Assembly (NCBI GenBank): GCA_965649825.1
Contig: OZ287712.1
Location: forward strand, 248,001-312,000
Reading direction: 5' to 3'
Length of the DNA stretch: 64,000 nucleotides
Source: Penicillus capitatus
Taxonomy: Eukaryota > Plantae > Chlorophyta
Shown here: positions 9,601 to 34,807 of the stretch, in pieces
How the letters are laid out: every line of letters starts with the position of its first letter
Position numbering within the stretch: position 1 is the stretch's first letter
Notes under the pieces: model-generated
The model's input: only the letters and a program-made list of their open reading frames with translations
Database searches by the model: none
What the model was told of the DNA's origin: nothing
Translations under genes and position numbers: made by a program

Positions 9601-9937
9601 GAGCAGTTGTAGCAGAACCAGTCACTCCTTGCGTCCACGCTGGAAGGCGTTCACTGTGAGCCTCTGGCAGAATGCGGACATAGTTAACCGCCGTTCATTG
9701 CACCAAGGAGCGAGAACGCGATGCAGAGAAAATGCAAAGTAACGACGATAGAAGTTTGTCAGCCAAGCGAGCGTTTTCCGAGGTGACGTTTGCTGACTCA
9801 CTTTCCGAAATATCAGACTCTGCGAAAGTGACGCGGAACTCTTTGTAGGAGTGCGGTAGGGCTTGCGCAAACGTCAGGAACACGGAGAAAAGGAATATCG
9901 CGGTAGGACACCCGTGCGCTTTGACAGCGAAAGGCAT
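3618..9937 (-). CDS. Large secreted/surface beta-helix (Pmp-like, pectin-lyase fold) repeat protein with Cys-rich linker and C-terminal multi-pass TM domain, copy 1, multi-exon
   Basis: Signal peptide MPFAVKAHGCPTAIFLFSVFLTFAQA from ATG 9937. ~900-aa exon (6362-9067) of GGA[I/V]...FxxNxA repeats; CRPCPENGNC/GYW Cys-rich region; TM region with DTSLKCYEGSH. The internal exons I checked splice in frame, including a GC-AG intron at 4834-4881; the 5'-most exon junctions are less certain. Confidence 0.85.
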
Positions 9938-11572
9938 CTCCCTCAATCTGCCGCTTCGACTGTCAGGTTTAGCCCTGCGCGTAAGGAAACTCGAGCCGTC
10001 AGATATCTTCTTCTGCTTTTCGGATTCGACCAAGCTGGTCAACATGTCTTTCTCGGCAAACGAGCTTAACAAACAGACTTATGCGAAGTCGAATTGCACT
10101 CCAGCGTTTAAGTAGTCACTTCAGATGAAGCTTCCGGACAGTGGACTGCGAACATGAATAGGAACAAAGGTGAGAAACAGTGACAGGCGAATTGGCCGAG
10201 AACCTGACAACCCGTGTCCGACTTCGACCGGCGGAAGCTGCATCCATCTGTCGAAAAGCCGCGTTGGGTCGAATCTGCGATATCGCGACGGAATCTTTCA
10301 CGTCACCGGATAGTTGTCTTGAAGAAAAGCCAACCGACTATTACAGACGCTCCTGTTTTTACAAGCTCGTCTACAAATATCACTGATACCATCTATACCT
10401 GTGTATGCTCGTTGTTCATATCCACTCGTTTGCCGAACTCTAGATGAATGACATTGTCCTACCTACGTTCGATAGAGTCACGCACGGAGACAAGACTCCG
10501 TTTAGTTTCCTGCGAAAGTGTAAAGTGTTTACCTGCCGTGCTGAAAATCGCGTTTTCCCGTGCAACTACGTCGCTGTGGAAGTTACCGCTGAGCGAGCGA
10601 GACTCGTCGCTACTCATCTTAAGTAACGTAACGTGAGAGACAGCCAGAACACGAAGGAACGTGTGTCTAGTGTGTAGACGACGCGGCTCGCCTTGCTGCC
10701 GACCCTTTTGGCGAAAGCTTTATACAAAGCGGCACCTAAAGCATTATCTATTCCTTGGTCCCGTTTGTTTGTTCGTCGCCGTGTCGTCCGCGGGAAACGA
10801 GCTGACGTCATCGATGCGACGTGTCTTCTGTCATTAGACTTATTACAAAGTTTGAATTGTCATTTCTATAAGGTATGAACAAAAGCAGGAGGCCATTCCA
10901 GTGTTGTGCATCTGCGTAGTAACTACAAGCGGATCAATAAGCATCCTGGTTTTCTGACAGGTTTGTTCCATTGAGTGGAGATTTCTATGATACTCAGTTT
11001 AGTCATGAATATGCGGATGATTAAAGAACGTATGGGAAAAGGCTGCAGTATCACTCTCACTGTGAAAAGGTCTTTTCAAATCTCCCTTTTCTTTTTGTCA
11101 TGTGAAACGGAGTGGCCGTTTCTTCTGTTTAGCTTACCTTGTGTCCAGCGCAGGCCTTGTCGCTCGGGTTCTCGACGGAGATAACAGACTGCCAGAGTAT
11201 GCGCGATGCTGTAGGAGAGACTGAGCGACGAGCTGGTCGTGTGTCGCAGGTCCAGTGTCAGGGGCACGTTCGACCACGTTCGTTGCCAAGGTATGGTTGA
11301 TAACTGTATTCGCAGCGCCGACGCTCTAGGAGTGATATCAACGACGGACGAGACGGGCACAAAAAGATGGCAGTCCGGAACGTAAAATTCGGCAAATGGT
11401 TTCGCGTGCCGCGTGCGGCGTCATCTTTCGTGTCGCTCTCATTGTACTTGCGGAATTGACAGACACGCAGCTGTCTATCAGCTATACGTACGAGCCTAAA
11501 ATCGATGCGAACTTCACAGCCCGTATGACACAGTTTGGAAACTGTCGTGAAGATGTTATGGAGCCGCTCGGG

Positions 11573-16200: not shown

Positions 16201-19200
16201 GAATGACGCGAGAAAGATGGCGAATGAAGGCGTGGCACGTACGTAGGAGATCGTGGACCAAGGTCATCCGATGACCGAAGGTGCGGTGCACAGAGCACAA
16301 CGACTCTTTCTCAGACCACGTCGCAGCTATTTGGAGGCAGGGGACGGAGAATCCTCGGTTCTGCCGGAAACGGATAGCTGCTGTCTTGCGACGCGCATGG
16401 ACGGCGACGCTGTCTTGCGACGCGCATGGACGGCGACGCTGTCTTGCGATCTTTTCAGACGAGCGAAGGTCATCTCACCGTAACCCGAACCAGACGCGTT
16501 CCGGTCCAGACGGCACATGTCGGCAGAGCGGCGTCGGAGTCGCGGCGCCGAAAGAGATTCCGCAGTGAACGCCGACTCCTCGAGAATCCCGCTCTGACGA
16601 CGGCGCGCCACCTGCCACGGGACTGCCGATTCCCACATGTCGAGGCGGTGGTGGATGGGAGTCGTTCAGCTGCAGCATCACTCGACATGTGATGGCTGCT
16701 GACGTGTTCTTTCATCCTGCTCGGCGACATCAGCGTCGACGCACCTTGTCAGGTATGTAAATCCAAAGTCTCTGCATTACATGTGTTCTTTGTACAGGTA
16801 GGTCTTGTCTCTTGACAGTCCATTTGACTGTCGTACTTCGGTTGGGATCTGCCAGGAAGCTAGCCGATTCGCCAAACAGGCGCATGATGGATCATGCAAT
16901 CTCGTTCCCTGCACTGGACCTAGAATCATCACTCTTCGTGCTCATACCTCGGTCGCGGTGTCACACATCCGTGTGACTCTGATAAGAACATGTATCCACT
17001 CACACATGGCTGGCAACGTCCCTCATCTGGGTAGTCTCTTGTGACAGGCACCGCAGCCGGAGAGGGAGGTCGAAGAAGTCGCTAAGGATAGATCGAAGCA
17101 GATCGCATCATGTGCGGTCGCCAAATACCGCATCTGACAGATGCATGGCCTCCTGACGAGCAGCGAAAGCCAAGGCCTTCTCTCACTGACCGAGGTCGCC
17201 GGACTCGACTCGCCTGTTCTTCACTGACAGTCGAGATTCGCACTGTCCTGTCGAGGGCAGAAATCTGTCGCCGATCCCAAAACTTCTTTCTCTCTCTGGA
17301 GCAGTTGGGGATGGGATCTTCCTGGCTGAACTGTCTGTGTGGCCATCTCACAGATCCCTGACGATCGGAGAGAGGACTTCTGTAGCCTTGGAGAGCCAAC
17401 GAGTCAGATGATGCTGTGCTGAGTCACTATGGTTCAGCGATGTGACAGGACCAGAGCTGTGTTAGAGTTCATGTTTCAAGGGAGAGATCGCGGCATCGCA
17501 GTCCGAGCGATCAGGAAATGCGCATCCCGTGTGTGACTTTGACGACCTCTAGTTGGCAGAGTCTCCGAATCCAGCAGATGATGTGACAACAGCGGCCGGA
17601 TCGGACCCTCAAGACTTCAGATGCAGAGAATCCCAGCTGGTTGCCGGAGTCTGTAAGAATCCGTGTCCGCTTGCAGTTGTAGAGAAGTCGAGCAGCCTCG
17701 ATCAGACGCCATCAGTGACCTCTGTCAGCGCCGGACGTGCTACCGGTCCTACCAGATAGAAGATGCGTGGAGGATCGACCTCAGAGTTCGATCTCATCGG
17801 CTCAGTTGCGCAGCTCTCCTGCTCAAAGCGAAGACGCCTGTCGACAGCATGCCTGCACGCCGCGATGAGATTTCACCTGGGCTCTTTTCCCGGCCGAGGC
17901 AGTCAGTCGTTCCGGCACCAGTTTCTACCCTGATCTATTCTGGTCTGCTTGTCATGGATGCGGTGCTGCCACCCGTATCATGACAGCAAACGCGTGCTGA
18001 CACGTTTTCTGGCCTCACCTTCGTGGATATCTCATTTATCTGGAGTCTGGTGCTTTCCTCCGACTTTCTTTCCTTTAACCTAACTGGCCCAAAAAAGCCT
18101 CCAGCTCCCAAAATTCTCGCGTCCAATTTCGGAAATAGACAACGATGTGACTGGATCCGGTGCGCGCGGCACCCACTCTACGGTTGGCGACCATTCGCCT
18201 CCCACCGCCTGCGGAGGCGGTCGCTCCACGAAGCGGGAGCGTTACCCATTCCTCGCATGGCCACGACGGAAAGGGAAGAGAGCTGCGCCCACGCCTCTCG
18301 TGAAGCGCGCCGAGCGCTCGGACGCGACGACGGAGTCTCTTGCGCCATCCTTCGCCGGTAGACGGCGCGAGAGGATGCGTCGCATGCCACGGCGGCACAG
18401 ACTGCGTTCGCGCTCCTTGGCGGGCAGCAAGAGATCGTTTCGACGAAAGGCCAACGCCTCGAGGGAGATCCATTTCGTCGGTCGGCCAGCGCGCCGCCCT
18501 TCTTGGACATTTAAGATCGGACCGAGAGACCAAGACACGCGCGACAGACCGCCGATTCCCGCGCCGGTTGCGGAAGGAGGTCGGAAAGCACCTTCCTATC
18601 TGCTCGCACACGCGATGCGCTGCTGAGGCTGGAAGTGTTGACAATGTTACACGAGACCACCAGAGAACAACATTGTCTGGGTCTACAGGGGCTCAGTTGC
18701 CGGTCATCGGAAGAGCACAGGCGTGACTGGGTCCATCGACGACTGTTCGCAAGGCGAGGTGTCTTCCATCTCTCTATGAGTATTCTCTGCGACGTGTACC
18801 TGGGCCGATTCTGCTCTGGTTGTTGGGGCTGATCTAGAAGAACAGAGTTTCGAGTGCTTTGTCACTTACCTGCTCCGTGTGACAGTGTCGTTTCGATGGA
18901 TGCATCTGGGCCATTCAAATCATCCAGAAGAAGTCCTGTTCGTAACCTCCGTTCCATAGCGGACAGGGTTTCTCGTTTGAAAGTGTGACCGTCTGTGCAT
19001 GTATCGTAGACAGTTTATAGACACTCTAGTGTGGAGGATGTGTGCTGAGCATCGGAGAATCGTGATTCCGGCGTCCAGATGCCTCTTGTTCTGGTAAAAT
19101 GCTATGTACCGACGTCTATAGCGACCAAGAACACAAACAGGTTCGTGCCTTTCTCGAGCTTAGCAGAGATCTGCATCTTACGACGTCGAGTGGATCACAT

Positions 19201-19480
19201 CTTGTGCGTGTCATCGTTTGAAGGACAAGGAGACCTTTGGTGCTTCTGGAGAGCGTCGAAGGAGCACGGCTGCACATCAGACGATACTCATAACTTGTGA
19301 TGTGCATCCCCGCAGGTGTGCACAAGAACGTCCACACTATATGGATAATGAACTCTTCAATGACGCTGGCTTTCTCGTCTTCGAGCTTAAAACCGTCATG
19401 CTTATCATTGCCGACAGGGCAGCAAAGCAGGATCGTCTCTTGCATGATGAAATCGGATGTCGGTCACGCGATGAAGAAAT
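13278..19480. repeat. Repeat R, copy 2 (decayed gene remnants)
   Basis: 13278-14140 aligns to 44864-46375; 14140-18320 aligns to 48322-52430; 16692-19480 aligns to 1-2790. Confidence 0.9.
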
Positions 19481-19585
19481 ACGGATATCGCCCCCCGTCG
19501 GCCAGTCTGCCCAATGCCCCACTGTCACGTACAGCAAGCCCGCAGCCTATTTTGGCAGTAGTGATGCTGGAGACTATACTATCAA

Positions 19586-20086
19586 GTGCATGCCATAGGC
19601 CCTCGCAGCGAAACAGGGCCAGCCGATGCGGGCAGCGGGCCATTGACTATCGCAGCCGGACAGGGACTCTCAATTTTCATCGCGCAGCCCAGCGGCAGCG
19701 ATCCCAAAGTATCGGGCTATGTCAATGCCTCCACGGAGAAAGACTCTCAGACCACCTACTGGATGGAGATGATGAGGAAGGCCAACAATGGCCTCAGCAG
19801 TTTTGTCGACCTCAATCATGTGCGCCCCAATACTGCCGACCTGCTCCTGCTGAGCACCAGGCCCATACCCTAAGACCCTGGCGGTTTCGTTCGTCAGCTG
19901 TTTTTCAACATGGGGAGTGGTCGAATGGGCGATGCCCAGAACCAGCAGAGCACGGGGATGAGACTGATCAACCTGCCGCTTTCGCGAACGCTGGCCGCTG
20001 AGCAGCACCTGATCTGCGGATTCCACACGGCAGACGTGTATGTGCCCTACCACCATGAACTGATTCGCAACGTTAAAGCTGCGTAA
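19586..20086 (+). pseudogene. 3' part of a prokaryotic/phage-like gene of unknown function (in-frame TAA at 19871)
   Basis: One frame continues through the stop: ...TTYWMEMMRKANNGLSSFVDLN...*DPGGFVRQLFFNMG...YVPYHHELIRNVKAA*. No introns; begins near the end of host homology. Confidence 0.35.
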
Positions 20087-20098
20087 AAGAGTTTCTCG

Positions 20099-20527
20099 AT
20101 GGGGCACAAGGAAACGGAGAAATTGATAGCCAAGGCTATCGCCACGGCGCAAGCCCCTCTAATTGAGAAGATTCAGGCCCTTGAGCCCAAGCAGGCGGAG
20201 TTCGAGGAAAATCTGCGCAAGACTGGCCGGCGAGACCTCTCGGAAGCGATTACAAAATTGGAGTGCGACTTAAAGACAATCAGAGAGCGAGAACATGGTC
20301 AGGCGCCTGTAGAACAGCAGGCAGTGGAGTCCCCGTGCCCCGCTTTCCCGGATAAAGACCAGGTTGGCGAAAAGGTGGAGCTGTATTGCCAGAAGTATGC
20401 GGATAAGGGCGATTACGCGACTACTACGAATAAAGGCAAAATCAATTGGCAATCGGGCATTGCCGAATTGCCCTACAAGTGGGCCCGCGAGCACTGCGAG
20501 GGACAGCCTTCCGTGCGCCTGGCGTAA
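20099..20527 (+). CDS. Phage-like hypothetical protein (N-terminal coiled coil)
   Basis: Intact 142-aa ORF (LIAKAIATAQAPLIEKIQALE...GKINWQSGIAELPYKW), tightly packed with its neighbours in operon fashion. Confidence 0.55.
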   Translation: MGHKETEKLIAKAIATAQAPLIEKIQALEPKQAEFEENLRKTGRRDLSEAITKLECDLKTIREREHGQAPVEQQAVESPCPAFPDKDQVGEKVELYCQKYADKGDYATTTNKGKINWQSGIAELPYKWAREHCEGQPSVRLA

Positions 20528-20552
20528 TCCATTGTAAAAAAGGAGCATGAAT

Positions 20553-21004
20553 ATGAAACGAAAAGAGATCATTTACATCGACGATTTTGGTCGCTGCGGT
20601 TGTTATGTGTGGCCTTCCTGGCGATCCTGGCCGAAAGGCATCTGGAGCGGTCCCTGGAGCGCGAGGAATTCGCGCTTATCTATCACGAGGCTTTGCAGAA
20701 AGGCCACGTCTGGCACAACGGCCATCCCACGGACGGCAGCCGGGGGGACTGGTGCCGGTGCTATGTGGCCCACCCAGTGGTCCTGGGCAATCTTATCCCG
20801 GAGCGTGTGGGATTGTGTCTGCGTCTCAAAGTGGTAGAGCGTCGCCTCATGCCGAGGCGGGACTTTACGCTGATCTGCTACAACACGAAGTGGGGCCAAC
20901 ACTTCGCCCTGGGTAACTCGGAGGGCAGCGAAGTCGTCAATCCCGATCCGGAGTTGCCGCTTCCGCGTGTGGACAGCTACCGGGTTTTTAAACTGGCGAC
21001 ATAA
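20553..21004 (+). pseudogene. DUF261-like papain/C39-fold peptidase (putative endolysin), one frameshift near 20600
   Basis: SD AAGGAG 20540-20545, ATG 20553. Reconstructed MKRKEIIYIDDFGRCGC/LCVAFLAIL...IYHEALQKG...CYVAHP...GQHFALGNSEGSEVVNPDP...DSYRVFK. This matches my recollection of the spirochaete DUF261 pattern (GC..L, CY..P, HF, SxRVF). Confidence 0.6.
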
Positions 21005-21054
21005 ACAACAAAAAGACCGGGGTGAACAATGAACTTCTCAAGGAGGGGATTTTT

Positions 21055-21284
21055 ATGAAGAGCGGACGCAAATATAGCGTGATCGTGATGGTGAGCGTGC
21101 TCATCAGTCTGGGCATGGTGGCCGGCGTGATTGCCGCAATCAACGAGGCGAACTTGCCCTGGCTGGCCACTACTCTGCCCATCCTAACCAGCGTGTATCC
21201 CCCTACATGGAAGCCAATGCGGTGCAAAAGAATACGCAAGCCAAGGTTGCAAAACCCAAGGCCAAAGAGCCAGAGAGAGGTTGA
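21055..21284 (+). pseudogene. Holin-like two-TM protein, one frameshift near 21195
   Basis: SD AAGGAGG 21040-21046, ATG 21055. MKSGRKYSVIVMVSVLISLGMVAGVIAAINEANLPWLATTLPILTSV/(V)SPYMEANAVQKNTQAKVAKPKAKEPERG*: two hydrophobic helices and a basic tail. Confidence 0.55.
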
Positions 21285-21286
21285 GA

Positions 21287-21466
21287 ATGAAAAAGTTTGT
21301 TTTACTACTGGGGGCACTATTAATCCTGTATTCAGGGCGGGTTCTACTACTCACACTTAAATTTGTGGGAGTTCTTTCCTGAAGTTGGGGCTTTGTTCTA
21401 CTTCCTTCTGAGCTTGTGGGCACCATAGTAGCGATTGCTTTAATCTTTTGGGGTCTCTTAGGTTGA
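21287..21466 (+). pseudogene. Small hydrophobic membrane protein, frameshifted
   Basis: ATG 2 nt after the upstream stop. Fragments MKKFVLLLGALLILYSG / NLWEFFPEVGALFYFLL / LVGTIVAIALIFWGLLG* lie in shifting frames. Confidence 0.35.
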
Positions 21467-21486
21467 GCCGGGAAGGATTGGCGCTG

Positions 21487-21753
21487 ATGGTCTGGGTGAT
21501 TTTGAGCGCCGCCCTGGGAATAGCCGTGGGCGGTATCTGGCTAGGGCGCAAGTGGGGCTTGCAAACAGGACGGAAAAGGACAGAGCAAACCCTGTCTGAA
21601 CAACGGTCAAAATATAACAAAGTCCTGTTTGAAAATGAAATGATCAACGCAAGCAAAGATCGCGCGTTAAGGGAGATAGGCGATGCGGATACGGAGGAAG
21701 AAGCCGTGGTTGTTGTCTCCGGCGTTACTGACGACTGGAATTCTGGTCGCTAA
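21487..21753 (+). CDS. Inner-membrane-anchored coiled-coil protein (i-spanin-like)
   Basis: SD GAAGGA 21472-21477, ATG 21487. N-terminal TM (MVWVILSAALGIAVGGIWLG) followed by a helical segment. Confidence 0.5.
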   Translation: MVWVILSAALGIAVGGIWLGRKWGLQTGRKRTEQTLSEQRSKYNKVLFENEMINASKDRALREIGDADTEEEAVVVVSGVTDDWNSGR

Positions 21754-21845
21754 TTGACGGGGATACGCCAAACACTGGCGCGCCGCGTGCGCGCGAACGC
21801 GTATGCGAAGGCGGAGGAACTGTAAACAGCCAAAGCTAAGACTGA

Positions 21846-22178
21846 TTACATGGTGAGTCCAGTCACTTAAGTACCCTCGGCGCCTGCGGACCGCTGTCAT
21901 ATCAGGAAGCGGACAGCCTGTCCGGTCCGCGGGGCCGCAACCGTTGTCCTCTACCCGTCACTAATTGCGCTACGGGAATCCAGCAAGAAGCGTCTCTGCC
22001 GAGACCCCAGAGACTGCAAATTGCAAGCGTCGACGAGCTGAGAGAGGCGACCTTAAACAATGACATCACAGATCTTGTCAAGATTTATGTGCGTGATATA
22101 GCTGAGCTTACGGCTTACGCAAGGAAACTGGAGGCCTTGCTTAACGCGGCAGAAGGGCAACGGGAAAGGGAAAGATGA
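21846..22178 (+). pseudogene. o-spanin/lipoprotein-like ORF with damaged 5' end (not in ORF track)
   Basis: Open frame ...LPVTNCATGIQQEASLPRPQRLQIASVDEL...RDIAELTAYARKLEALLNAAEGQRERER*. Its TGA overlaps the next ATG (ATGA, 22175-22178). Confidence 0.4.
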
Positions 22179-22426
22179 CAGATAATCAGGAAATCATTAC
22201 GGAGCTGCGCGAAATATGCTTTGAGCTTAAGCACCTATCAGGACAGTGGGACAAGACTTTTGCGCACCTTGAGGAAGTTATTGGGCTGTGTCTCACCAAA
22301 CACGAAAAGCGCCCGGGGTCCCTGGAGAGCTTGACGAGATCAAACGAGCGCAAGCTGGTCTCGTTGGTCATGGCGATTGCCAATGCCGCAATGGTGGCGG
22401 CGGGCCTGCTGGTGAGGCTGCTCTAG
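22175..22426 (+). CDS. Coiled-coil plus C-terminal TM protein (XhlA/holin-like)
   Basis: 83 aa, with HEKRPGSLE then the TM segment LVSLVMAIANAAMVAAGLLVRLL; translationally coupled start. Confidence 0.5.
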   Translation: MTDNQEIITELREICFELKHLSGQWDKTFAHLEEVIGLCLTKHEKRPGSLESLTRSNERKLVSLVMAIANAAMVAAGLLVRLL

Positions 22427-22524
22427 TATGCTGTTAGTTACGGGAGAATATAAGATGATGATCAAGGTTTTTGAGTTTGGCAAGTAATGGCAACGATCAG
22501 AGCCGAAGCATTCCGCCAATTGTA

Positions 22525-22760
22525 CTGCGCTATCGTGTCTCTATCAGTACCGAGTCCTGCGCTATCGTGTCTACAATCAGTACCGAGTCCTGCGCTATCG
22601 TGTCTACAATCAGTACCGAGTCCTGCGCTATCGTGTCTACAATCAGTACCGAGTCCTGCGCTATCGTGTCTACAATCAGTACCGAGTCCTGCGCTATCGT
22701 GTCTACAATCAGTACCGAGTCCTGCGCTATCGTGTCTACAATCAGTACCGAGTCCTGCGC
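22525..22760. repeat. 33-bp tandem array, ~7 copies
   Basis: Unit ctgcgctatcgtgtctacaatcagtaccgagtc: six identical copies, one 32-bp variant and a 6-bp tail; no spacers. Confidence 0.95.
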
Positions 22761-22859
22761 GAACAGCCCAGTAGCCACAGTCAGGAAAACCAGGCTCACC
22801 CAAGACAGGTAGCCTTGCAATTGGTAACGCACGATCAGGTTTAACATCTTTTGGGTCAT
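22530..22859 (-). pseudogene. Bacterial-type secreted protein fragment with expanded (AQDSVLIVDTI)n repeat
   Basis: MTQKMLNL...YLSWVSLVFLTVATGLFA-QDS resembles a signal peptide with a cleavage site. The coding strand of the array is ambiguous. Confidence 0.3.
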
Positions 22860-23318
22860 GATAATCTCAATGCGCCGACCAACATTCCTCTCGATGCCTC
22901 TTCTCGAAATCACCTTATTACATTCTACGGCCGCATCATTCTGAAACAGTGTATTTCCTCATTCAGCACCTCAATGTGCCGCCTATTTTCCCCTAGGAGA
23001 AAAACGCCAGCTTCCCGTGTGGGCCTTCAGCTATGTTCAGTTATTCGTTTTGTTTTTCCATCTGAGACGGAGCCAGCTGCTCATCGGTCTTCGCTTGCGA
23101 TGGGCAGTAAGTCCTGTCGCGAAGTACGACAACTGCTGACGCGATTCTTTCCGACTCTGTTTTCCATGGCGTTGTCTCGCTACTCCGTTCAAACGAATAG
23201 TGCCGAGTCAGAAAGGTCTTTGCTGGAATGAGACCATGATTACCAAATAAACGAACACAGCTTGCCTTAGGTCTAGCTGTTTATTTTTGATTCCATTTGA
23301 CTTGCGTCTCTACTCAGG

Positions 23319-23567
23319 CTAGAGATAGGGAGTCAGATGGAAATTTTCTTTAACACTTATATCTTTTTCTATGCTGTTTTCGTGGTTTCTTTTTTCGAGC
23401 TTCCACCCTGGCCGGGGAAGCTTAAAATTAGAGGGGTTTTTCAGACCAATCACTGTCATAAGGATTGAAATTTCATTGCCTTCAACTCTGACGGAGTCAC
23501 GATTTGCACCAATATTCGCAACCACACTCCCCGTCTCTATCCGCGTCATCGCATCTCGTCCATCCAC
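23319..23567 (-). pseudogene. FkbM-family methyltransferase-like fragment (internally deleted)
   Basis: VVANIGAN resembles the D(I/V)GAN SAM-binding motif; VEGNEISIL and RPGWKLE resemble the DVEGxE and RP..LE motifs. Spacing between them is much shorter than in intact proteins. Confidence 0.35.
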
Positions 23568-23871
23568 AAAAAAACCAAACTTTAATATGAACCATATTTT
23601 GGGCTACATGCGATTAGGCTCAGTACTCATATCCAGAACAAGACGATTGTCGCGATCTAAATTGCCGATTTAAAAGTGTGCGCGTAACGATCACATCGCA
23701 TCGCAATACGCCGCCAGTCTTTCAATTTAGCAAAAATATCCTCAACTTTATGGTGCTTTTTATAACTCGTTTTACAATATCCTATTGGCTCCTTACGATT
23801 CCTGCGACAGGGAATACAACTCCCAATATTCTTATCTACAAGCATTTTTCTTACTCTTGAGCTATCGTAGC

Positions 23872-24119
23872 TGTCGCCTGGCGATGGGACTACTGCCTTG
23901 TTGTTGAGGGGTTCATGTGTTTAGGGGGCGTCTGCTGTCTAGTCATAAGGGCCAAGGGACCATTTCTTGTGGCTCTGACGGCTCACTAAGTCACCTGCCT
24001 AGGAAAGTCACGTCACCACGTGGGTACTTAATTAGGAAATCGGACCCTTCCAGACCTGCTCTGTAAAATAACGAAGTCTTCCGCTGTTAACTCGTTTGAG
24101 CGCGGCGCCTCCGCTGACA
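23872..24119. mobile_element. Solo-LTR-like insert A (248 bp)
   Basis: Starts TGTC, ends GACA; flanked by direct repeat GTAGC (23867-23871, 24120-24124). Excision restores ADRGY-DSSRVRKML in frame. Confidence 0.8.
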
Positions 24120-24202
24120 GTAGCCTCGATCCGCAATCAGTACTTGCGCCGCCGGCAACTTAGAAAGCAAAACGTTTGCACCTTTGAAATCGCTTCTCTG
24201 AC

Positions 24203-24601
24203 TGATACGCGCGAATATCGAATTGTTAAAACAGACAGACGTTTGTTTCCTGTCAGAATGACTAGAGCAGTCACATCGTGACTGCCTAGATTTCCGAGGG
24301 TTCTGTCTCCGAGATGGCACTTACTAAGGGTTAACGTCACCTCAGAGTCCTTTTCCTATGGCTCTGAGAGGCTGGTGACTCACTTGTCCTGTCACTATTA
24401 GCACATAAATCCGTAGACGTGGCCTTGTAGATACCTTGCTCTGTAACACAGTGAAGACTTCCCCTGACATTTCCAAAAGGATGATGATTGTTTTGATAAC
24501 CCCCTTTTATAGTATTTTTCTGCATGACGTTATGATGGCGTCATGCTTCATGTCACGTTGTGACCTTCTCCTTCAGTTCTTCTCCCCTCCTGACAGTGAC
24601 A
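24203..24601 (-). mobile_element. Solo-LTR-like insert B (399 bp)
   Basis: TG...CA termini; direct repeat CTGAC (24198-24202, 24602-24606). Excision restores SEGQ-RSDFKG in frame. TATAAAAG on the minus strand at 24504-24511. Confidence 0.8.
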
Positions 24602-26652
24602 CTGACCTTCGCTCAGATGCAGCCGAATCGGACGCACCCTGCACCATCGCTCAGAACATGCAATTTGCTATTCATACCTCCAAAGATATTGAACGGTACG
24701 CCCGATCAAGCGTGGCTAGTTGCCCCTTTTTCAGGCTTGATGCCATACGATGTGCCTTCAGATGAGTGGCGTCAATCATCAGCATATCCGCCTCTGCAGC
24801 ATTTGGTTTGACCAGTTCTTCGAAGATATTCTTGAAAACACCGTTCTTGACCAGCACACAAAACGATGTAAAGTGTTTTAAGGGGTCGTATTCAGGCGAT
24901 GCATCACACCAGCGTGAACCATTGCCAATAATGAAGATAATACCGCTGAGAACACGTCTGTCATCGACCCTGGGACGGCCGTGTGTCTTTGGGAAATGGG
25001 GTTTAAGACGCGATATCTGCTCATCGCTCAAACAAAATAGATTGCTCATGGGCAGGCTCTGTTTTAGAGATATTGAATCGCTTTACTTTCCTGAGGTCAA
25101 TGGTTTCTGAGCCTAACGCTGTACCAGCTGGAGACGGGGAGGAACGAAATAGCTATACTGCCACTGCTTATTGCGCATAGGTGGTGGTTGCAGCTTTGCT
25201 GTCAGCATATGGTCTGCCGGTTCGGGTGCTAATCTCCACCCGGACAGCCGTCCTTTTTAGTTTTTTTTTTAATCCTTCTTCGCCTTGCTGATTTGTAAGC
25301 GCCAGGGCTTCACTAGATCGCTTTGCCTTCTGTCGAAAAATAGCCGAAACAATTAAACACACTCAAATTGGTTTTTGTTCGATCATGCATGCACACACAG
25401 CCCTCCGATGAAAAACAGCGGTCAGTTCCACGATCTCAGTCATTGCTTAATAGCAAAGGTGAAGAACTGCTCCGACAACATCAGCAATGCACACCATCTG
25501 GCAATGGCCATCTGAGGTAAACAAGCATCTTCAACTGGCACTGAGGCAAAAGACCGTTCGTGCGATGTAGATAACTTGAACTCTGTAATGCTGCTGAGTC
25601 ACTCGTCTTCGAACAGAACACTGCCACGCTCGTCCTTGCCGACAAGGCAGCAAGAAAGTATGGTTCCTTTCATGATGAAATCGGATGTCAGTCATGTGAT
25701 AAATGAAGTGCTCGAGACGAATGATCTTCCCACATCTCAATCGCAGAATTCGGATTACTGAACGGACAACGACAACGATGTCAACAAAGAGTCGTCGTGC
25801 CAAGCTGATGAGACTGAGACGGAAGACGTCTGCATTGCCGTACGACGTTATCGTGGACTCCGTTCTCTGTCCTCGGAAGGGCATTGTCCCAGAGATTGTT
25901 CTGATCCTCATTAAATACTTGCAGCAGGTGATGCTATTCTCCCAGGATGGTAGGATTGTTTTGTTTGTGGCGACTGAACCACGCAACCCGAATGTGCATT
26001 TCGACATCGATCTGACAAATCGATCGCAGTCGAACGAGATACTTCGCATACGTCAAATCGAATGTCGATTACATCTGGATGATACACATCGTTTACTGTT
26101 GTGACAAATGGAACTTCTCATTTGTACGAAGAACACTGGTTCATGTAATCTGCGTAAAACTAGTAAATCTCGGAGCCATGCTTCAGAATAAAGGAGCTGC
26201 CGAAGTCCAGGTTTCTCAAAGAAGACGATGTCTTTTGCAGATTCATTCAAAGCCTCCGCTGTGACGACAGAGAGGCCATCTTCAAACTGATTGTGTATTA
26301 CTGGACGATAAATGACACATGCGATACAAAACACTGTTGTGGGCAAAAAGGAAGAGATTCATGATCCTTTTTATGTGTTTTTCAGTACGCGTCCTCATAA
26401 TCAGCGACACGTTTAAGTCTTAAAGAAGATATCCGGCCTTTCATCGATTCTGACTTAAGCCGGCACTTGTTAGTCAGCCAGGAGAGCAAAAAGAACAGCC
26501 CTCATGGGAAGAACCTTTGTCACTGTACCCAGACTGACTGATGCAGTAAACGATACACTAGACTTGCGTTTATTCAACTGAAAAAAGACAAACTCCTGAG
26601 ACATAGCAAACAGAAAAGGTGTCATACATCTAAGCCACTGATGTGAAGCGAT

Positions 26653-29600
26653 TCACACACTGAAAGAGGGGCCTGGATTGTTTGGCAGATTGGAAGGTTC
26701 GCCACTTCGTTTGTGGCACAAGCGTCCGACGCATTGCGTCACACGTGTAAAAAGAAAAGCCCTCAAGACTCGGAGGGTGCTCCAATCCTGGACACCTTCC
26801 ATGCCTTGGTCCTCAAGGACAGCCTTCAGATAGATTTCCGCAGATTTGGTGAAAGTGTAGGACAGAACAAGGAAGAACCCACAGATCGCCATGGATAGCA
26901 AAAGTGTGAGGAGAATTTTGACAGCATCAGAGGTGCGATTGTCATTGAAGAACAAACCAGAGGCAAAGGTCAGCTGAGACACAACCAAAGATGCGGTCTC
27001 GAAGCCGTTCAGAAAACCATAAGGCTCGTCGAATGGCTGATAGGTAACATGGACATAGATTGCGAATGTGAGAATGCAAACAGCCAGGATCCCTTGGATG
27101 TTGGTTCCCAAGGGATAGGAGAAGGCAACCACGACGGTCAATACAGCCTTTCTGAGCATCACTATAGATTCCCAGAAAACAAAACGCTCCTTGTATGCGC
27201 GGTACAGGAATCCGGTGGCATCAGAGAACCAGGGATTCTGACCGGGTTTCTGAGAGCGTTGTCTGATCAGGACGTAAGCCAAAAAGGCAGGTAGTCCAAA
27301 GGAGAAGATGACGAGGACGGGCCAACCCGCAGTTGCGGCGAGCAGAGCATGAGATCCTTCATAGCATTTCAGGGAAGTATCGAGTGCCCAGTATTTGTCA
27401 GTATGCTCATCTTCGAAGTTGACGGAGTCATGCACTCTGATGCAGTGAAGCGTGTTGACGGCTGTCTTGGTAATTGACACGTAGGTAAGGTAAGCAACGG
27501 CCAGGAAACTGAGTAGTGCTCTCTTCGCGAAGTACCAGGTGTTTTCGTGGTACTTTCGCGTCAAGAAGATCCAGAAAATGACGTAGAACAGAAATATGCC
27601 TGCAGGGATGAGAAGGTGGATGATGGAACGCATGACGGATCTGGGTGGATCGTTGTGTCGATCAAACAGGCAGTCTACAGAGAGCGCGATCCCTGCAGTA
27701 GCAGCTCCGCTCAGGAAGTCTGCAAGACACAAGAGAGTGTCGCCAAGAGATTCTTGAATTCAGAAGCCCCATAGCATACCTGCCGCGAACAGCAATGAAC
27801 GCATCCAATTGGTCCAGTTCAGATTGATGATTGCAGCTGCGGCGATCACCTGAAGGAAATTGATGCCGATCTATGATACAGAGCAAGTCTGATATTGGAA
27901 TGTGTCAAAAGGATTTGCCTTGAAGATTTCGACGACCGTTCGCTTCGCGACTGTCGGATCCGAGATTGATGCTCTTTTCCTCGATACGGAATCGGGCAGA
28001 TCTGGGCGAGCACCTTCTGACGTTATCTCTCCGGTGTGCGTCGTCTCTACCAGCTCGAAGTGACCTGGAATGTTGTTGGTCGAGATTCTTTTCTTCGAAG
28101 GAACAAGACGACGATTTCTTCGACTGACCCGATCGGTCCGATTTTGATTCACCACAGGCATCCGTGTGTTCAAGTTGCTTCTGATTGCGAAGCTGGAGAG
28201 AAGGAACAACACAAGGATGGAAGCCACAAGAAGCATCGCCGTCTCAGCGTCCCGGTGGCATTCGTCGCACTCAAAGGACCAAGAGCGTCCATAACCAACA
28301 TCACAGGCGCCACAGAGGAAACCAGTGTAACCCTAATAAGGTAGAATGATTGGCAATTTCATTGCTGAGAATAGCCACACTTTTTTACACTGAGCCTCGG
28401 AGTAGTCTCTGTCTAATGTCTCTTCGATCTCGCAAGTCTCTATTTCATTCGTCAAGTCGTTCAAAGCATCTTCTCGGCCACTGAAGTCACACGCCTCTCT
28501 CGAAACACATTGCTGGACGTGACGAGAACAGGGGGACCGATGCCAATAACCCTTGTTTGGGTGGATGACGTTCGTAGTACAGTTACCGTTCTCCGGACAG
28601 GGCAGGCACATAGATGCATCTGAGTCAAAGTTGTATTGTGATCCACTGCAGCGGACACAGAGTGTCAAGTTTTCTTGGGCGAACTCCCCAAGCTGACACT
28701 CTCTGACTTCGACTTCGACGGAGAGCGGCTCCAGACTGGGTTCGCTGAAGTTCATTCGGATCTCGTATCGGCCTGGACGCTGAAATCCAGAGATCGGCGG
28801 GAAGCTCTTCTGCTTCTCATTCACCTGCGTGTTGAACTCTCCAGAGAACAGACCGTCCGGAGAGTACATCGTTGCCTGGACAAATGCATCCCCTTCGCCG
28901 AGGGCCGGACTCTGTCCGTACCCGTCCACGATCTCGACAAGAAGCATCGGAAGAGAGTCTCCGCTTCGGTGATTCCCAGAAACGAGTTCGTTGTTCTCGA
29001 TAGGCCGTTCACTGTCGTCTTGACCATTGCCGATTGCAAATCCGCTGACGGATCTCGCATACGAGGCAATGACTGGACCATACAGATCAGCCTGGTTGGC
29101 CGTCCAGTCTGGGCACATATCCTTGGTCGATTTTAGCAGCTCCAGTGCTTCTAGAGCGTCTGTCTGGTACAACTCAGGAGGCGTTTCTGTGTCTTTAGAC
29201 CAGCAGGAGTAACGAAGGACGTTCGGATCCTGTGTGAAGATGGCACCTCCGGATGTCTTGGCTCGATTGTTTGAGAACGTGCTGCCGGTCACTGCCACAA
29301 AGGTGCAAGAAGCATTTGATCTCGTGCAGTCTTGTTGATGTCGCTGAGTGGAAACATGCACCGCACCTATGGCACAATCATAAGAGTTGTTCTGCTTTCA
29401 AACTATAAAGACACCTCCAAGATCGGCACTGTTGTCATTGAATGTGCAGTTGTTCAGCTGCAGTGACAGAGATTGGGGCTCGGAGGAACCAAAAGCGATC
29501 GCTCCTCCATGTCCTTTTGCGTCGTTGTCGCTAAAGACGCATCTGGAGCACAGGAAGGTGGATGACGCATTCGCCAAAACAGCCCCTCCGTTTTCCTTGG

Positions 29601-32600
29601 CCATGCAATCGGAGATCTTGAGTTCATCAGCTGTGAGACTTGATCCAGTGAGTAAAATGCTTCCGCCACTCATTGCTTTGGAGTTCGATAGCAAAGTGTT
29701 TAAGATTGTCAATGAACTGTTCAGTGTTGCTGCGATTGATCCCCCAGCGACGGTAGCCTTGTCGTCCGTGAAATTAGACCTTGTCAGTTGTAACCTGGAA
29801 GTCTTCATGACGATGGATCCTCCGATGGCGCCCTTGTTTCTTCGAAAAGTTGTTGCATCTGCATTCATCTCAGCGTCCTCGAGGTAAGCGGCGCCTCCGT
29901 CGCTAACTGCTTTGTTGTTCTCAATTGTACAGTCATTAAGAAACACTCGCGCCTGCGTTTTAATGTATAGGCAGCCTCCAGTATCGGCTTTGTTGTTTAG
30001 AAAGGAACAATTTGTCGCCCGGAAGATGCTCGATAATTCACTGTACAGGCACGCTCCTTTCCCTTCCACTTCATTGCTCACGATCGATCCACCAATGACA
30101 ATCATTTCCCCTTCATGGAGACGAACTGCACCGCCACCTATGAGTGCGCGATTGGACGATATCCTTGAATTCTCCAGAACAAGTTTGCTGTTCGTGTAAC
30201 AACTGATTCCTCCAGCAGCTGAAGTGACGGTGTTGGACTCAACGATGCATTTCGATAGGTGCGCAAGTGTCTTGCTTTGAACGGTCAGACCCCCACTGTC
30301 TGGGGCCGAATTGGATTGCAATACAGAATCGGATAGATTGAACAAGGTTCTGCTTGAGCAACTGATTCCTCCTCCTACGACAGCAGCATTGTTGCTGCGG
30401 ATGATCAGATCGCTGCCAGCCGCGTTGCACGTGGCCAAGAAGAAGCCGCCTCCTTCTACAGTGGCTTGGTTCGACAAAAACAAGGAGTTCAGGATCGTTG
30501 TCTCACTCTGCTCGCATGCAAAGCCACCTCCGTTTTCCGTATCAGCTCTGTTTTCTGTGAAGTTTACGCTGAAAAGTGAAGTGGAAACGCGAATGACATG
30601 CACTCCGCCACCCGAGCCAGCGGTATTCTGTGATACGAAGCAGTCCTTCAGGCTGATCGTCGCAACCAAAGCACCCACACCTCCTCCAAAGATTTCTGCA
30701 GTGTTCCCAACGAAACTATCATTATCCACATCTGCTCTTGCTTCTTCGACCATTAAGCCAGCACCTTCATTGGCCTCGTTTCCTGTATAGCTGCATCTGA
30801 CAGACTCGACGCTTGAGTTCTTGACGGAAACTCCTCCTCCTTTCACTTGAGCAGAGTTCGCTGACCATGTCACTTCTTCCAGACGAGCGTTGCTTTCCTC
30901 GCGGATCCCTGCTCCACCACCGTCGAGGGTAGCGCTGTTGCCAGCGAAGACGCATCGGCGAACGAGAAGATCGTCTGAGGCGCTGCAGTCAAGGCCTCCG
31001 CCTGTTCTGGCAGAATTGTTGTTCACTGTGCATCTGCTAAGTTGCATCTGAGTGGATGCGGAGAGGAAGATACCTCCTCCCTTGTCATTTGCTGCATTCT
31101 CTTCGAAGGTCGTGTCCACGATCTTGCTCTCCGAAACGCCATCGAAGTGAATAGCACCGCCGCTGTCAGCAGTGTTCTTCGACATCACGGATCCGCGGAC
31201 GACGAGATCCCTCGATGCAGATATCTGCAGACAGCCACCGTCTCTGGCCGTGCCGTTGCTGCAGTCCAGTGCAGATACCCTCGACGAGCTGCTCTTCGTC
31301 AGGAGGATGGACCCTCCTCTTCCCGATGCATTGTTGCTGCGGAAGATGGAGGAGATCAGCTCCAGTATTCCATTGGAGACATAGAGAGCGCCTGCGTCCG
31401 TTGTAGCCGCGTTGTCTTGGAAGGAGCAGCCGTCGATCGTCAGATTTCCGTCGAAAGAGGCGATGGCGGCTCCGTTCTCTGCGGCATTGGACGTGAAGCT
31501 GCAGTTGGAGACTGAGAGGTTCTTTGTTGAATTCGACAGGATGGCAGCTCCAGAGAACACGGCGGAGTTCTCGCGGAACGAACTGTCGACGACAGTGGCT
31601 GTCTGAACACGGTCCAGCAGGAGAGAGGACTCTGTGGAGGTTCTGATATCGGCATTCCTCATGTCCAGGCTGCCTTCTACAACGCGGAGAACGGCGAGTT
31701 CGTTTGAGCTGGCGGTCAGACCTTCCACCGATGACGAGGAACCCGGCGGAGACGACATCAACGATAATGACGAGTTCTCTCCGGACAGTCCTGTGTTCCT
31801 CCGGAGCCTCAGTCCTCTCAGATCGTTCTCCGGTGCCAGTCTGGCAAAGCACTGATCGCCGCAAGTGTTGTTCGAGAATACGACATCGATCATCTCAACG
31901 GAAGAGCACAACGAGCTGGAAGCAGAGAGGCCACTTGCTCCGTTAAGCGAATTGCGCCTGAACGCCACGTGATGCAGACTGATCTTCCCCAGAGGACCCT
32001 CCCGGAGGCAGCTGTCAACCTGGACGATGGATGCGCCTTCTGCGTCCAATGTACAGCCCCGAAAGACCATATTGGCGAGGAGCACATTCTGAGACCTGTA
32101 CAGTCATAACGGTCAGTCACTTTGCCTGGTTGGCAGTTGCTGTGGCTGGATCTACCTTATGTGAAAGACTCCATCTTCTGACGGACATCTGAATCGAATC
32201 TTCCGGTCTGCCTTCGGAAAGATGCCATCGATGGGATCGGTTGATGGGACGTTGGAGCTCAGAGTGAGATTCCACTGCACAACAATTCGAGCAGACACTC
32301 GTATCTCGTCTTCGACATTCAGTAGGATGACATCGTTCTCTCTTGTGCAGTTGATAATGACACCGAGGTCTTCCGCTACGCCTTCCAGTGCCCTCGAGTC
32401 AATCAGCCACGTCCTTGACTCCTCGTCTAGCAGATCTGATATCTCCTTTCGCGTCAGCTGACACTCCGTATCTAATCACACCATACACAGTTCACAGTTT
32501 CGGTGAGACTAATGCATCGGTTGTTGTATTACCTTCTCCAACGGCGCCACGGGATCTTCTTTGGGATAGACCACGAGTCGCCGGGCGTTCCTAAGAACAA

Positions 32601-32979
32601 ACCATCATCCCTTTCTCCGAATGCTAAAGGGAAGGTAGATACCTGAGCAGCTGCAGCAGAACCGGTCACCTCTTGCGTCCACTGTGAAAGTCGTTCGCGG
32701 CGAACCCCTGGCAAAACGCGAACGTAATCAATCGCTGTTCATCGAACGAAGGAGCGAGAATGCGATGCATCGTAATGCAAATAATGACGACAGTTTAAGT
32801 TGCCAGCCAAGCATTCTTCTGAGACGACGTTTGGCTGACTCACCTTCGGACTGAAGACGCTCCGCGAAAGAGACAAGGATTTCTTCTCGGGACTGAGCTG
32901 CGGCTAGAGCAAATGTCAGCAGCAGCGAGCAAAGGAACATCGCGGTAGGGCATCCATGCTTTCTCGCAGTGGAAGGCAT
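26653..32979 (-). CDS. Large beta-helix (Pmp-like) surface protein with multi-pass TM domain, copy 2
   Basis: Exon-for-exon paralogue of 3618-9937. Signal peptide MPSTARKHGCPTAMFLCSLLLTFALAAA; same GC-AG intron (27871-27918). Confidence 0.85.
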
Positions 32980-34807
32980 CTCCTTCCATCTGTCCCTGTG
33001 ACTGTCAGGTCTGCCGCTGTGCGTAGGGAAACAAGATCCGCCATGTGTGCCTTTTTGGGCTTTGCGTTCAACCGTGCTGACCAACATGCCTCTCTGGCTA
33101 AAAAATCTGAACAAGCGACTATGATAATGCGAATCGAAATCCAGCGTTTAAATATGCTCTTTAGATGAAGCTTCGGGTCGGTGGACGACGAACATGAATA
33201 GCAACGAAGTTGAGAATCAATGACCACTGTTATGACCGAGAACTTGCCAGCTGTGTTTGCGTTTGGCCAGCACTTGCATCCATTGTCAGGAGGTCGCCAT
33301 CTCCCCAAGGCTACGAAGACACCCGAACGAAATCTTAGACAGCGCGTGTCAGCAATTCTGAAACACTAACGTCGGCTTCTCGCGCTTTTTCCTTTCCTCA
33401 CATGACCAGGCATTATTCCGACCATGCCTGTGTTTTTGCGCTGGCCATGTTCATTCGCCTGTTGAACTTCAAATGGCAGTGTTGCATGGAAACTTGGTGA
33501 AAGAGCTCCTAAAGTTAGAGACAAACGACTTCTTCCATTTCTCGCCGAAATTGTTTAGTTGCCGTGCCGAGAATCATGTCTACGCGTCTAAACGTGTTGC
33601 CGGCCGAGTGACATAGGCAGAGAGAGCGGCGGATCGTGCTCACTGTGAAATGCGCAAGACGGTCATGACCTGAAAGGAGGCTCGGGCTGTGGACGACAGA
33701 GTTTACTGTACTACTTGCCCCCTCAGCGGTAAGGGAGTTACGCCGAGGAAGCGCTTCGAGCACTGTCGTCACCTGTTAGTTTGTTCGTCATTTTGTTCAC
33801 CATGACATCGGTTGACGTAACCGATGCAAAACCTTCTCAGTGATTCTCTTCTGTCTTCGTCGGATAAAAGTTATGAATAAAAAGGGTATGCATATCTGTG
33901 ATATCAGGACAGCGTTGTGCATTTGTATTAGTGCAACCTGCTGATCAGAGTACCGGTTTTCAAGTAAGGTCAGAAATAAAGCGCTTTGATCCCCGCGGTT
34001 CACTTGGCTGCATTAGGGACATGAAGATAGAGAAATAAACATACAGCAGAAAAACAGACACCATAGAATATGAACAATGAATACCTAAACCGCACCTTTC
34101 TCGAGTGCAGATTTTGGACATTATATTCGTAGTCATGACGATGTCTTTGACAGGCCAAATGGATGTCGCGCAGGAAGTTAGTTAATCATGCAAACATCCA
34201 TCCGATCCTGTTAAGAAGTCTTTGGTGTTCTCTCTTCTTTTTCTCATTGTGACATTGATGGTTTCCGTTGTCCAGTTAAGGATTCATGTCAGTCGACAGC
34301 GCCGCTGTTCGCATTGCTGCTGCGATAGATGTGATACGGCTTCAGAATGTGTAGCACAGCACTACAGGGTGAGGCAAGTGGCTGGACGGCTGCTTCGAGT
34401 CGCCGGCAAGAGGTGCTTGCTGTCGTTTTCCTCGCCAGAATAGACATGCAAAACGGTGTGAACGATGCAAAGACGTGGATTCTTCAAAAGCTGTTTTACA
34501 ACAGTTCGGACACAGACAAGAGAACTCGAAACGGTAGCAACTTGACGAATGGCTCCGCATGTCGTGTGCCACGTCATCCTTCGTGTGGTTCTTACGTGAT
34601 TTGCAACTCAGCAAACACGCAGCTGTTAGTCACCGACACGACAAGGCAGACAGCACTGCGAACTTCACAGCATGCATAACGCCATTCAGAAACCGTGACA
34701 TCATAGAACTGCGCGGGTATGTAAGCAGCGCGAAAGTACTCTTCGCACAAAGAGTTCATTCTGTGAAACAAACGGCGAAGTCGATTCGTAAGCACTGTCC
34801 CTTCGTC

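Follow-up and report, generated by a model that had tools for sequence, protein, structure and literature searches.

A 6-kb block of Haliotispira-family-related DNA, likely with a partial prophage and an IS5-family element, in a repeat array of the green alga Penicillus capitatus

Introduction

Most known cases of dead bacterial DNA in eukaryotic chromosomes come from Wolbachia and the Rickettsiales. Here a further case is described, namely a foreign block of about 6 kb in a 64,000-nucleotide stretch of the genome of the green alga Penicillus capitatus (contig OZ287712.1, positions 248,001 to 312,000; hereafter the window, in whose own numbering positions are given), in which remnants of a phage late region with a likely lysis cassette, designated open reading frames (ORFs) A to H, are followed by an IS5-family insertion sequence (IS). 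Two published systems come closest to it. In the grasshopper Chorthippus parallelus, nuclear Wolbachia inserts that include phage WO are reported to occur in several haplotypes (PMC4675112), and the window is similar in that pieces of a bacterial chromosome, prophage genes among them, lie in a eukaryotic nuclear genome in several haplotypes; it differs in its spirochaete donor, its non-arthropod host, its Herelleviridae-type capsid and its insert of 6 kb. The abstract for Volvox carteri strain EVE presents a rickettsial nuclear insert of ~9 kb, read as the trace of a past symbiont (PMC4324946). Like the block, that insert is a short run of several bacterial genes within the nuclear genome of an alga, but no prophage or IS is named in the abstract, whereas the block in the window consists mostly of prophage and IS5 DNA related to spirochaetes.

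Neither spirochaete DNA in the nuclear genome of an alga, nor a spirochaete donor of nuclear DNA or a host-spirochaete association of this kind, was found described in the literature searched, which excludes most subscription journals. The main text of an Ostreobium genome preprint, as far as it was available, contains neither 'phage' nor 'spiroch' (10.1101/2020.07.21.211367), and the name 'Haliotispira' is mentioned in the accessible part of one further article (PMC11092123). Bacterial relics in nuclear genomes are an already known kind of finding; the donor of the present one is unusual and well resolved.

The block is explained best, and with considerable confidence, as DNA related to that of the family of Candidatus Haliotispira prima, likely a piece of chromosome with a partial prophage and an IS5 element, and as now lying within a eukaryotic chromosome, probably in functionless decay. 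It is regarded as a neutral relic of such a chromosome, and not as a chimera, because of its match to a spirochaete genome (G003), its bridged junctions, the neutral ratio of its allele differences and the host-type insertions within it.

Linkage of the block to host DNA

Self-comparison of the window revealed a tandem array of host repeat units and placed the foreign block at ~19,476–25,545, between two non-identical copies of these, with no counterpart in an intact unit. A preliminary description of this DNA, made from its letters and ORFs, had set the limits at 19480..22430 and thus ended the block some 3 kb too early. On the left, homology to window 3–2782 stops near 19475 (aligned stretch 16694–19459), and the unit on the right is a gene with polymorphic-membrane-protein repeats, Chlam_PMP repeats having been found in its paralogue at 6365–9067. 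The 158 bp common to both flanks are only 73% alike, so that the flanks represent different paralogues, and no target duplication was found around the insert as a whole. The host DNA of the window is that of an intron-rich eukaryote, with a PALP-family gene split by short introns and further genes that include a BRD7/9-like bromodomain gene and a Methyltransf_8 gene. Repeat-protein expansions like the one in this array would fit a green alga of the Ostreobium kind.

Five sequencing runs from two studies, none of them listed as RNA, contain part of the stretch, and four (X1–X4) were compared. The left junction is spanned by an X1 contig of 223 nt with a depth of 131 against 125 for host DNA, and by an X2 contig of 2,932 nt (covering 19398–21749 and 21961–22540) with a depth of 27 against 33 and 37 for the flanking host contigs, such contig depths not being a copy number. 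The right junction lies within another X2 contig covering 25033–25605. Relatives of ORF C, ORF F, the IS5 element and the host gene from 59471 were each found on a contig of 702,701 nt, likely one and the same. Block and host DNA are therefore physically linked in the X1 and X2 junction contigs and, likely, on the 702,701-nt contig. It should also be noted that a low-depth X3 contig leads from 21128 back to 19746, the two being separated by 35 nucleotides, and that another X3 contig leaves the block at 20567; both are possibly rearranged copies of the insert.

Decay, insertions and allelic variation

The genes of the block are broken in several ways. ORF A lacks its 5' part and has a frame break near 19590 and a stop at 19871, and the frameshift of ORF C lies directly 3' of its catalytic Cys motif. 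Three elements with TG..CA ends have been inserted into bacterial sequence (Table 1). The 206-bp element reaches a summed depth of 13,597 against ~130 in X1, roughly a hundredfold the background, and separates the signal peptide of ORF G from its Cys, with the reading frames in agreement across the 211-bp gap; this break is not a single-base slip, the kind of damage that the preliminary description had proposed to repair, and the start of ORF G is now placed at 21683. Since the X2 contig skips 211 nt (the 206-bp repeat and its 5-bp duplication) while X1 and X4 contigs cross the ends of the repeat, it represents a presence/absence polymorphism. The 248-bp and 399-bp elements interrupt the IS5 element exactly where the G003 copies run continuous; a second copy of the former (71%) lies at window 57457–57686, and the latter has a summed depth of 2,552 in X1. 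For these two the 5-bp duplications at the G003-defined borders were taken, several 5-mers being tied.

Alleles of the block differ by 1–2% (32 differences in the X2 contig), and stops and frame breaks vary between them. Of 37 listed allele differences, 32 fall in ORFs, with 25 nonsynonymous and seven synonymous, giving a ratio of nonsynonymous to synonymous polymorphism (pN/pS) of 1.1–1.4. These differences are compatible with neutrality, and an omega of 0.2 was rejected (p<1e-5). Both decay and insertions of host type, as expected of a bacterial insert in a nuclear genome, are thus present, and the insert probably has no function as it decays. Within the host a working cassette as such is precluded by the frameshift in ORF C, by the split of ORF G in this allele and by signals that are bacterial.

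Relationship to Candidatus Haliotispira prima and its relatives

Within this family, the closest DNA matches were obtained for the right part of the block. Window 22516–22562 and 22719–22852 match G003, a genome of the same family, at 90–95%, in the end of a gene for a 342-aa protein related to a phrog_1004 structural protein in the prophage of another spirochaete genome (G033). A 33-bp unit within this gene end is present in 7.2 copies in the window (22525–22760) and once in G003; an earlier candidate in which these repeats formed a minus-strand secreted protein was dropped, as G003 puts the coding frame on the plus strand. The convergent gene that follows faces the 342-aa gene in G003 as well. 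Further to the right, the IS5 element carries the DUF4096 and DDE transposase domains, short inverted termini and TA flanks of its family and is 78% identical in amino acids, and 82–92% in DNA, to the best G003 copies; at E≤1e-15 it was matched in one of 401 genomes of the class, namely G003. An alphaproteobacterial origin of the element had been considered from plasmids, where 25 of 959 matching records reach 60–80% and the top 15 matches 55.6–59.2%, and was superseded by G003 at 78%. As the matched DNA combines the gene of a prophage with the adjoining chromosomal gene and an IS resident there, the sequence comparison suggests a bacterial chromosome as the likely source of the block, rather than a free virion.

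To the left, homologues of ORF C point to the same family. They were found in all four of its genomes, which provide four of the five genomes matched at E≤1e-5 among the 401 of the class. In a tree of 43 rows, the bootstrap of which had not quite settled, the window copy fell within a starred 11-row clade (97/96) together with all five family rows and both rows from Spirochaetota metagenome-assembled genomes (MAGs). The rows comprised 31 of 66 representatives of the ORF C family (see below), P0001, P0003–P0005, P0009, P0012 and six rows from genomes. Excluded were fragments, long fusions and the frameshifted allele. A bacterial origin with the window copy nested among bacterial sequences is thereby indicated, and the comparisons support narrowing the donor to the family of Ca. 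Haliotispira prima, in keeping with the spirochaete that the preliminary description had suggested from its DUF261-like gene. The left 3 kb of the block gave only short DNA matches of 66–77% in G003 and G004, against 75–95% to G003 for the right part.

The 2.4-Mb genome of G003, in a single contig, contains an orphan phage structural gene and no fewer than 22 matches to the IS5 transposase, the majority interrupted by stops; it gives the impression of a spirochaete restricted to a host and undergoing genome decay.

Table 1. Features of the block and its flanks (window positions)
Feature	Position	Strand	Basis or remarks
Left host repeat unit, truncated copy	16694..19475	none	90% to window 3-2782
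ORF A, 3' third of major capsid gene, phrog_752 Herelleviridae-type family	19473..20086	+	PHROG match
ORF B, orphan, 142 aa, open, N-terminal coiled-coil-like part	20099..20527	+	no family match
ORF C, DUF261-like papain/C39-fold cysteine peptidase, likely endolysin	20553..21004	+	homologues and fold
ORF D, holin-like small membrane protein	21055..21284	+	frame break near 21201 in this allele
ORF E, small protein with two transmembrane segments (TM), internal stop	21287..21466	+	phrog_1374 (unknown function), E 0.0065
ORF F, open, candidate Rz-like protein (inner-membrane spanin)	21487..21753	+	phrog_1403 Rz-like, E 0.071
ORF G, Rz1-like lipoprotein candidate, overlaps F	21683..22178	+	50-53% to G001/G004 lipoproteins
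206-bp high-copy repeat, TG..CA ends	21755..21960	none	7-bp inverted termini, 5-bp target duplication
ORF H, open frame of 83 aa with coiled coil and C-terminal TM (XhlA-shaped)	22175..22426	+	TM 62-80
Virion structural (neck-type) gene, 3' end	22516..22844	+	37/38 aa identical to end of 342-aa G003 protein
Convergent bacterial gene, 3' end	22940..23019	-	75% DNA, 16/25 aa to G003
IS5-family insertion sequence, inverted termini, TA flanks	23618..25113	-	DUF4096, E 9.2e-11
248-bp TG..CA insertion inside IS5	23872..24119	none	5-bp target duplication
399-bp TG..CA insertion inside IS5	24203..24601	none	5-bp target duplication
Further G003-like DNA right of IS5	25133..25265	+	78% over 136 nt
Right host repeat unit, different paralogue	25546..33224	none	77-84% to window 2662-10184

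Capsid fragment, ORF B and phage type

The ORFs of the cassette are intronless, on the same strand and tightly packed, with an ATGA stop/start overlap at 22175, and follow the order that had been read from the sequence (coiled-coil, peptidase-like, holin-like, small TM, N-anchored coiled coil, lipoprotein-like, XhlA-shaped). The Shine-Dalgarno motifs reported with them are in place (AAGGAG at 20540, AAGGAGG at 21040, GAAGGA at 21472), 7–9 nt before starts that homologues confirm, although their numbers do not exceed what chance would give (2, 1 and 1, with 1.24, 0.32 and 1.89 predicted from window frequencies).

ORF A matched the major head protein family phrog_752 (E 2.9e-4, profile positions 336–470 of 475), which is the Twort/SPO1-type major capsid family of the Twortvirinae. 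In a tblastn search of phage records at E≤10, seven of nine matching records were annotated as major head or capsid protein (best E 0.05), and 47 of 166 residues (28%) were identical to the capsid of the spirochaete prophage in G033, a score reached by none of 500 shuffles. From the PHROG match and the tblastn records the cassette is concluded to follow a capsid gene, and not the tail genes that lysis clusters had been expected to follow. No matches were obtained with ORFs A and C by tblastn on phage records at E≤0.01 and 1, with queries from ORF C and ORF A (A, A2, A3) on viral contigs, or with ORF A query A2 on genome contigs, and none of 784 longer candidate proteins matched ORF A. A match to Shiga toxin A (E 0.26) is at chance level and was outweighed by the capsid evidence.

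Herelleviridae are defined as large virulent phages of Bacillota with a full set of marker genes. ORF A represents the Twort/SPO1-type capsid of that family, the match being weak. The phage in the window is not assigned to the Herelleviridae, because only a fragment survives and all close relatives are in spirochaetes. The phrog_752 capsid was detected in 25 of 401 Spirochaetota genomes, and in none of the four genomes of the Ca. Haliotispira prima family or the six of its order. Several of the strong phrog_752 matches among spirochaete genomes contain one internal TAA.

The prophage in G033 (G033:C12) has phrog_752, phrog_1004-type, DUF261-like and Rz-like genes in one late region, as does the window. 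Its gene order is a protease, the phrog_752 capsid, a 109-aa gene, phrog_772 and phrog_1004, after which come a DUF261-like gene, a 246-aa gene, an Rz-like gene and a small lipoprotein-like gene. It differs from the window in the low identity of the capsids, in having its neck genes before the lysis genes and in the lack of a detectable ORF B homologue, the 109-aa protein in the same slot showing no similarity to ORF B. The comparisons of ORF B with this protein, and of the short ORF at 22455 with the G033 neck protein, were non-significant or marginal (402, 25 and 9 of 500 shuffles).

ORF B gave no family match in Pfam or PHROG scans. It was matched by two of 18 candidate proteins, one of which (P0008, 86%) is encoded on a contig of 480,931 nt; P0003, an intact relative of ORF C, likewise lies on a 480,931-nt contig, and these two (72–86%) are the closest relatives.

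A second type of spirochaete prophage shares the lysis cassette. In the Mu-like prophages of the Ca. Haliotispira prima chromosome (NZ_CP123443), G002 and G004, a DUF261-like peptidase, a holin-like gene and an overlapping Rz/Rz1-like pair are found in the same order as in the window, with 25–57% identity. The ORF C homologue heads the cassette of Ca. Haliotispira prima, where homologues of F (36%) and G (53%) overlap as in the window; in G004 the order C-D-F-G is kept at two loci (48–49%, 57%, 31–37% and 50%), the G002 cassette carries homologues of C, F and H, and F and G overlap in G001. These prophages have a Mu-type transposase, terminase and portal and are without phrog_752 and ORF E, and Mu genes were not found in the insert, the capsid of which is phrog_752. 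The cassette of Ca. Haliotispira prima further differs from the window in an extra 146-aa gene and in a second C-terminal domain fused to its peptidase (330 aa, L005:10001-10993); a further DUF261-like copy opens an 848-aa frame in the same species (G001:C1:3027580). The same-order loci in G004, G002 and Ca. Haliotispira prima provide the synteny with prophage lysis regions that was looked for, and together with the capsid match they support the proposal of a prophage late-region fragment.

Peptidase ORF C

A protein search with ORF C gave five matches among eight candidates, including the same ORF and another allele on a 702,701-nt contig. Intact relatives are 54–72% identical, with P0003 at 72% and the others at 54–56%, one of them from a Spirochaetota MAG. 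A profile of five sequences retrieved 66 representatives, of which ten were looked up and include the same Spirochaetota MAG and Ca. Haliotispira prima. Across 51 aligned sequences, made up of P0003–P0006 and 47 representatives out of the 66, a Gly-Cys and a His are invariant, and 28 of the 51 match DUF261 at E≤0.01; an Atlas search ranked DUF261 clusters at 0.98. The gathering threshold of DUF261 (PF03196) in Pfam was not reached, with no match for ORF C of the window and 13 bits against a threshold of 26.1 (E 0.11) for P0003. The sequence comparisons therefore support the ORF C family as a distant relative of DUF261, in line with the DUF261-like label first given to the gene. Apparent mentions of DUF261 in one article (PMC7291426) proved to concern DUF2612.

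The structure was modelled for P0003 (predicted local distance difference test, pLDDT, 96.9), which is the intact relative and not the broken copy in the window; a single-sequence fold of ORF C itself (pLDDT 37) was discarded. C39 and papain-type peptidases came top in a wide structural search with this model, none reaching a Z score of 8: PCAT1 (8vp3, Z 7.4, root mean square deviation 3.2, 109 residues aligned), ComA (5xe8, Z 7.0) and the pseudomurein endoisopeptidase PeiR (8z4h, Z 5.9). These share the fold and the Cys/His pair with the relatives of ORF C and differ from them in sequence, with 12–15% identity. Foldseek on the PDB gave no match to the model at E≤0.001, and the ORF C profile found nothing below E 0.2 among PDB sequences. 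Atlas returned no match with the broken ORF C, P0003 matched no phage record and only one plasmid by chance, and no endolysin family in Pfam or PHROGs matched ORF C. A metagenome locus (L001) was dropped, its match being 15 residues inside an unrelated 588-aa protein. In the donor, the modelled fold suggests, ORF C was likely a cysteine endopeptidase endolysin.

Small membrane ORFs

ORF D is 57% identical over 49 aa to the gene directly after the peptidase in the two G004 prophage loci. It had been described as two-TM and holin-like; in the piece scanned only one TM lies above the hydropathy threshold, and no holin or other family was matched in Pfam or PHROGs, so that it is termed holin-like by position only. 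No homologue of ORF E was found at the corresponding place in the loci of relatives.

ORF F has the anatomy of an inner-membrane spanin, with an N-terminal TM at residues 1–19, and is 36% identical to the homologue in Ca. Haliotispira prima, which matches three Rz-like PHROGs (best E 1.2e-4). ORF G begins inside the 3' end of F, an overlap also present in G001 and G004, and has a hydrophobic stretch followed by a Cys, that is, the anatomy of an outer-membrane spanin with no family match. The Asn before this Cys had been considered as a spirochaete signature and was rejected, homologues having Ser or Ala there and the literature, as far as it was accessible, offering no support.

ORF H is 30% identical to its positional counterpart in the G002 cassette. 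The coiled coil and C-terminal TM that had led to its comparison with XhlA are present, but no Pfam match to the XhlA haemolysin/holin family, which we take to be PF10779, was obtained at E≤1. ORFs E, F, G and H gave weak matches only in PHROGs, and none of ten window pieces scanned exceeded the Pfam threshold.

We infer the lytic activity of each ORF from sequence. In the donor, release of the papain-fold peptidase C by the holin-like protein D would allow it to cleave the peptides of peptidoglycan, and fusion of the inner and outer membranes would fall to the overlapping F/G pair. A two-membrane lysis module of this kind is proposed on account of the anatomy, the gene order and the homologues.

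Origin of the block and alternative explanations

It is likely that the DNA entered as filler at a break joining two different host repeat copies, because there is no target duplication and the sequence common to the flanks is so unlike. After entry it acquired stops, frameshifts, internal deletions, a minisatellite and the three host repeat insertions, all of them seen in the sequences, and several alleles segregate.

A number of points weigh against the explanation of the block as a relic of one Haliotispira-family chromosome with its prophage. No single relative holds the whole block, neither the capsid nor ORF B turned up in the four genomes of the family, the lysis cassettes of the family lie in Mu-like prophages, and neck genes precede lysis genes in G033 and follow them in the window. 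The lysis roles are drawn from weak family matches (E 0.071 for F), with no match in Pfam or PHROGs for C, D, G as a spanin, or H. Only the 37 listed allele differences were classified, those of X2 in part. The whole insert is not spanned by any listed short-read contig, the minisatellite at 22540–22731 is not bridged in the listed short-read pieces, and the runs come from two studies, and one is possibly the window's own sample.

A first alternative is a patchwork of two donors or a free phage, in which the part from the capsid to ORF H derived from a phage particle or a different spirochaete and became linked, inside the host, to another piece of DNA, from a G003-like chromosome. The lower DNA similarity of the left 3 kb, the abrupt join near 22,516 and the capsid and ORF B missing from the family are as such a patchwork would predict. 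Yet the leftmost of the G003-like pieces is where a virion structural gene ends, one that shares its phage type and strand with the capsid, so that a single prophage that has lost an internal part accounts for both halves, and ORF C groups with the family of G003; the patchwork is accordingly held to be improbable. A domestication of one or more of the ORFs B, F or H by the host, for instance as an antibacterial or membrane-active protein with the rest as hitch-hiking debris, draws on the fact that these three are full-length open frames. Short ORFs stay open by chance at 1–2% divergence, however, and allele differences are nonsynonymous to synonymous by 6:2 in B and 2:0 in H, no introns or host-type leader were seen, and the peptidase, the only likely enzyme, is frameshifted, which makes this a very unlikely course. 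The least credible explanation, for which we see hardly any room, is an assembly chimera or contamination by a host-associated bacterium. G003-like bacteria may occur in host-associated samples, and no listed contig crosses the insert from end to end, but short-read contigs cross both junctions at host-like depth, and a host gene likely shares the 702,701-nt contig of a further allele. The genes are broken and their variation neutral, three TG..CA elements that are high-copy or repeated in the window lie in bacterial genes with target duplications (one of them polymorphic), and identity to G003 is 75–95% and not near 100%. Capture by the host genome, as first proposed, is hence preferred over a chimera.

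As a relic of a Haliotispira-family chromosome, the block likely records a close past association of the host with a spirochaete, and can be seen as a molecular fossil of an association with one marine spirochaete family. It supplies targets for junction polymerase chain reaction, and its presence or absence can serve as a marker by which to date the transfer in different host populations. Although the insert itself is very likely functionless, a by-product is the finding of DUF261-like genes in the endolysin slot of spirochaete prophages, whose predicted C39/papain-like fold gives a testable function. A more far-reaching reading can be offered only tentatively, being plausible though not the one we would favour: that an intimate, perhaps intracellular, G003-like spirochaete lived in the host lineage, that this is the first identifiable spirochaete-to-eukaryote nuclear transfer, and that DUF261-like papain-fold peptidases are the common endolysin of spirochaete prophages with two unrelated head types.

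Other features of the window

Between 22,340 and 25,600, Pfam and PHROG scans covering 18 and 14 more frames gave nothing credible. In the host DNA, large tandem paralogues with introns, polymorphic-membrane-protein repeats and a multi-TM C-terminal part lie at 3621–9067 and 26653–32085 and are 84% identical. A 2.8-kb unit is present three times (3–2782, 16694–19459 and 50734–52427; 88–90%) with high read depth and is possibly a host transposable element. A 30-bp tandem repeat of ~20 copies at 34,938–35,638 forms a Pro/Ala/Ser-rich frame. Lastly, two long, related-looking open frames without Pfam match, at 55201–56502 and 59405–60448, have N-terminal Cys clusters, and the second of these is present exactly on a 702,701-nt contig.

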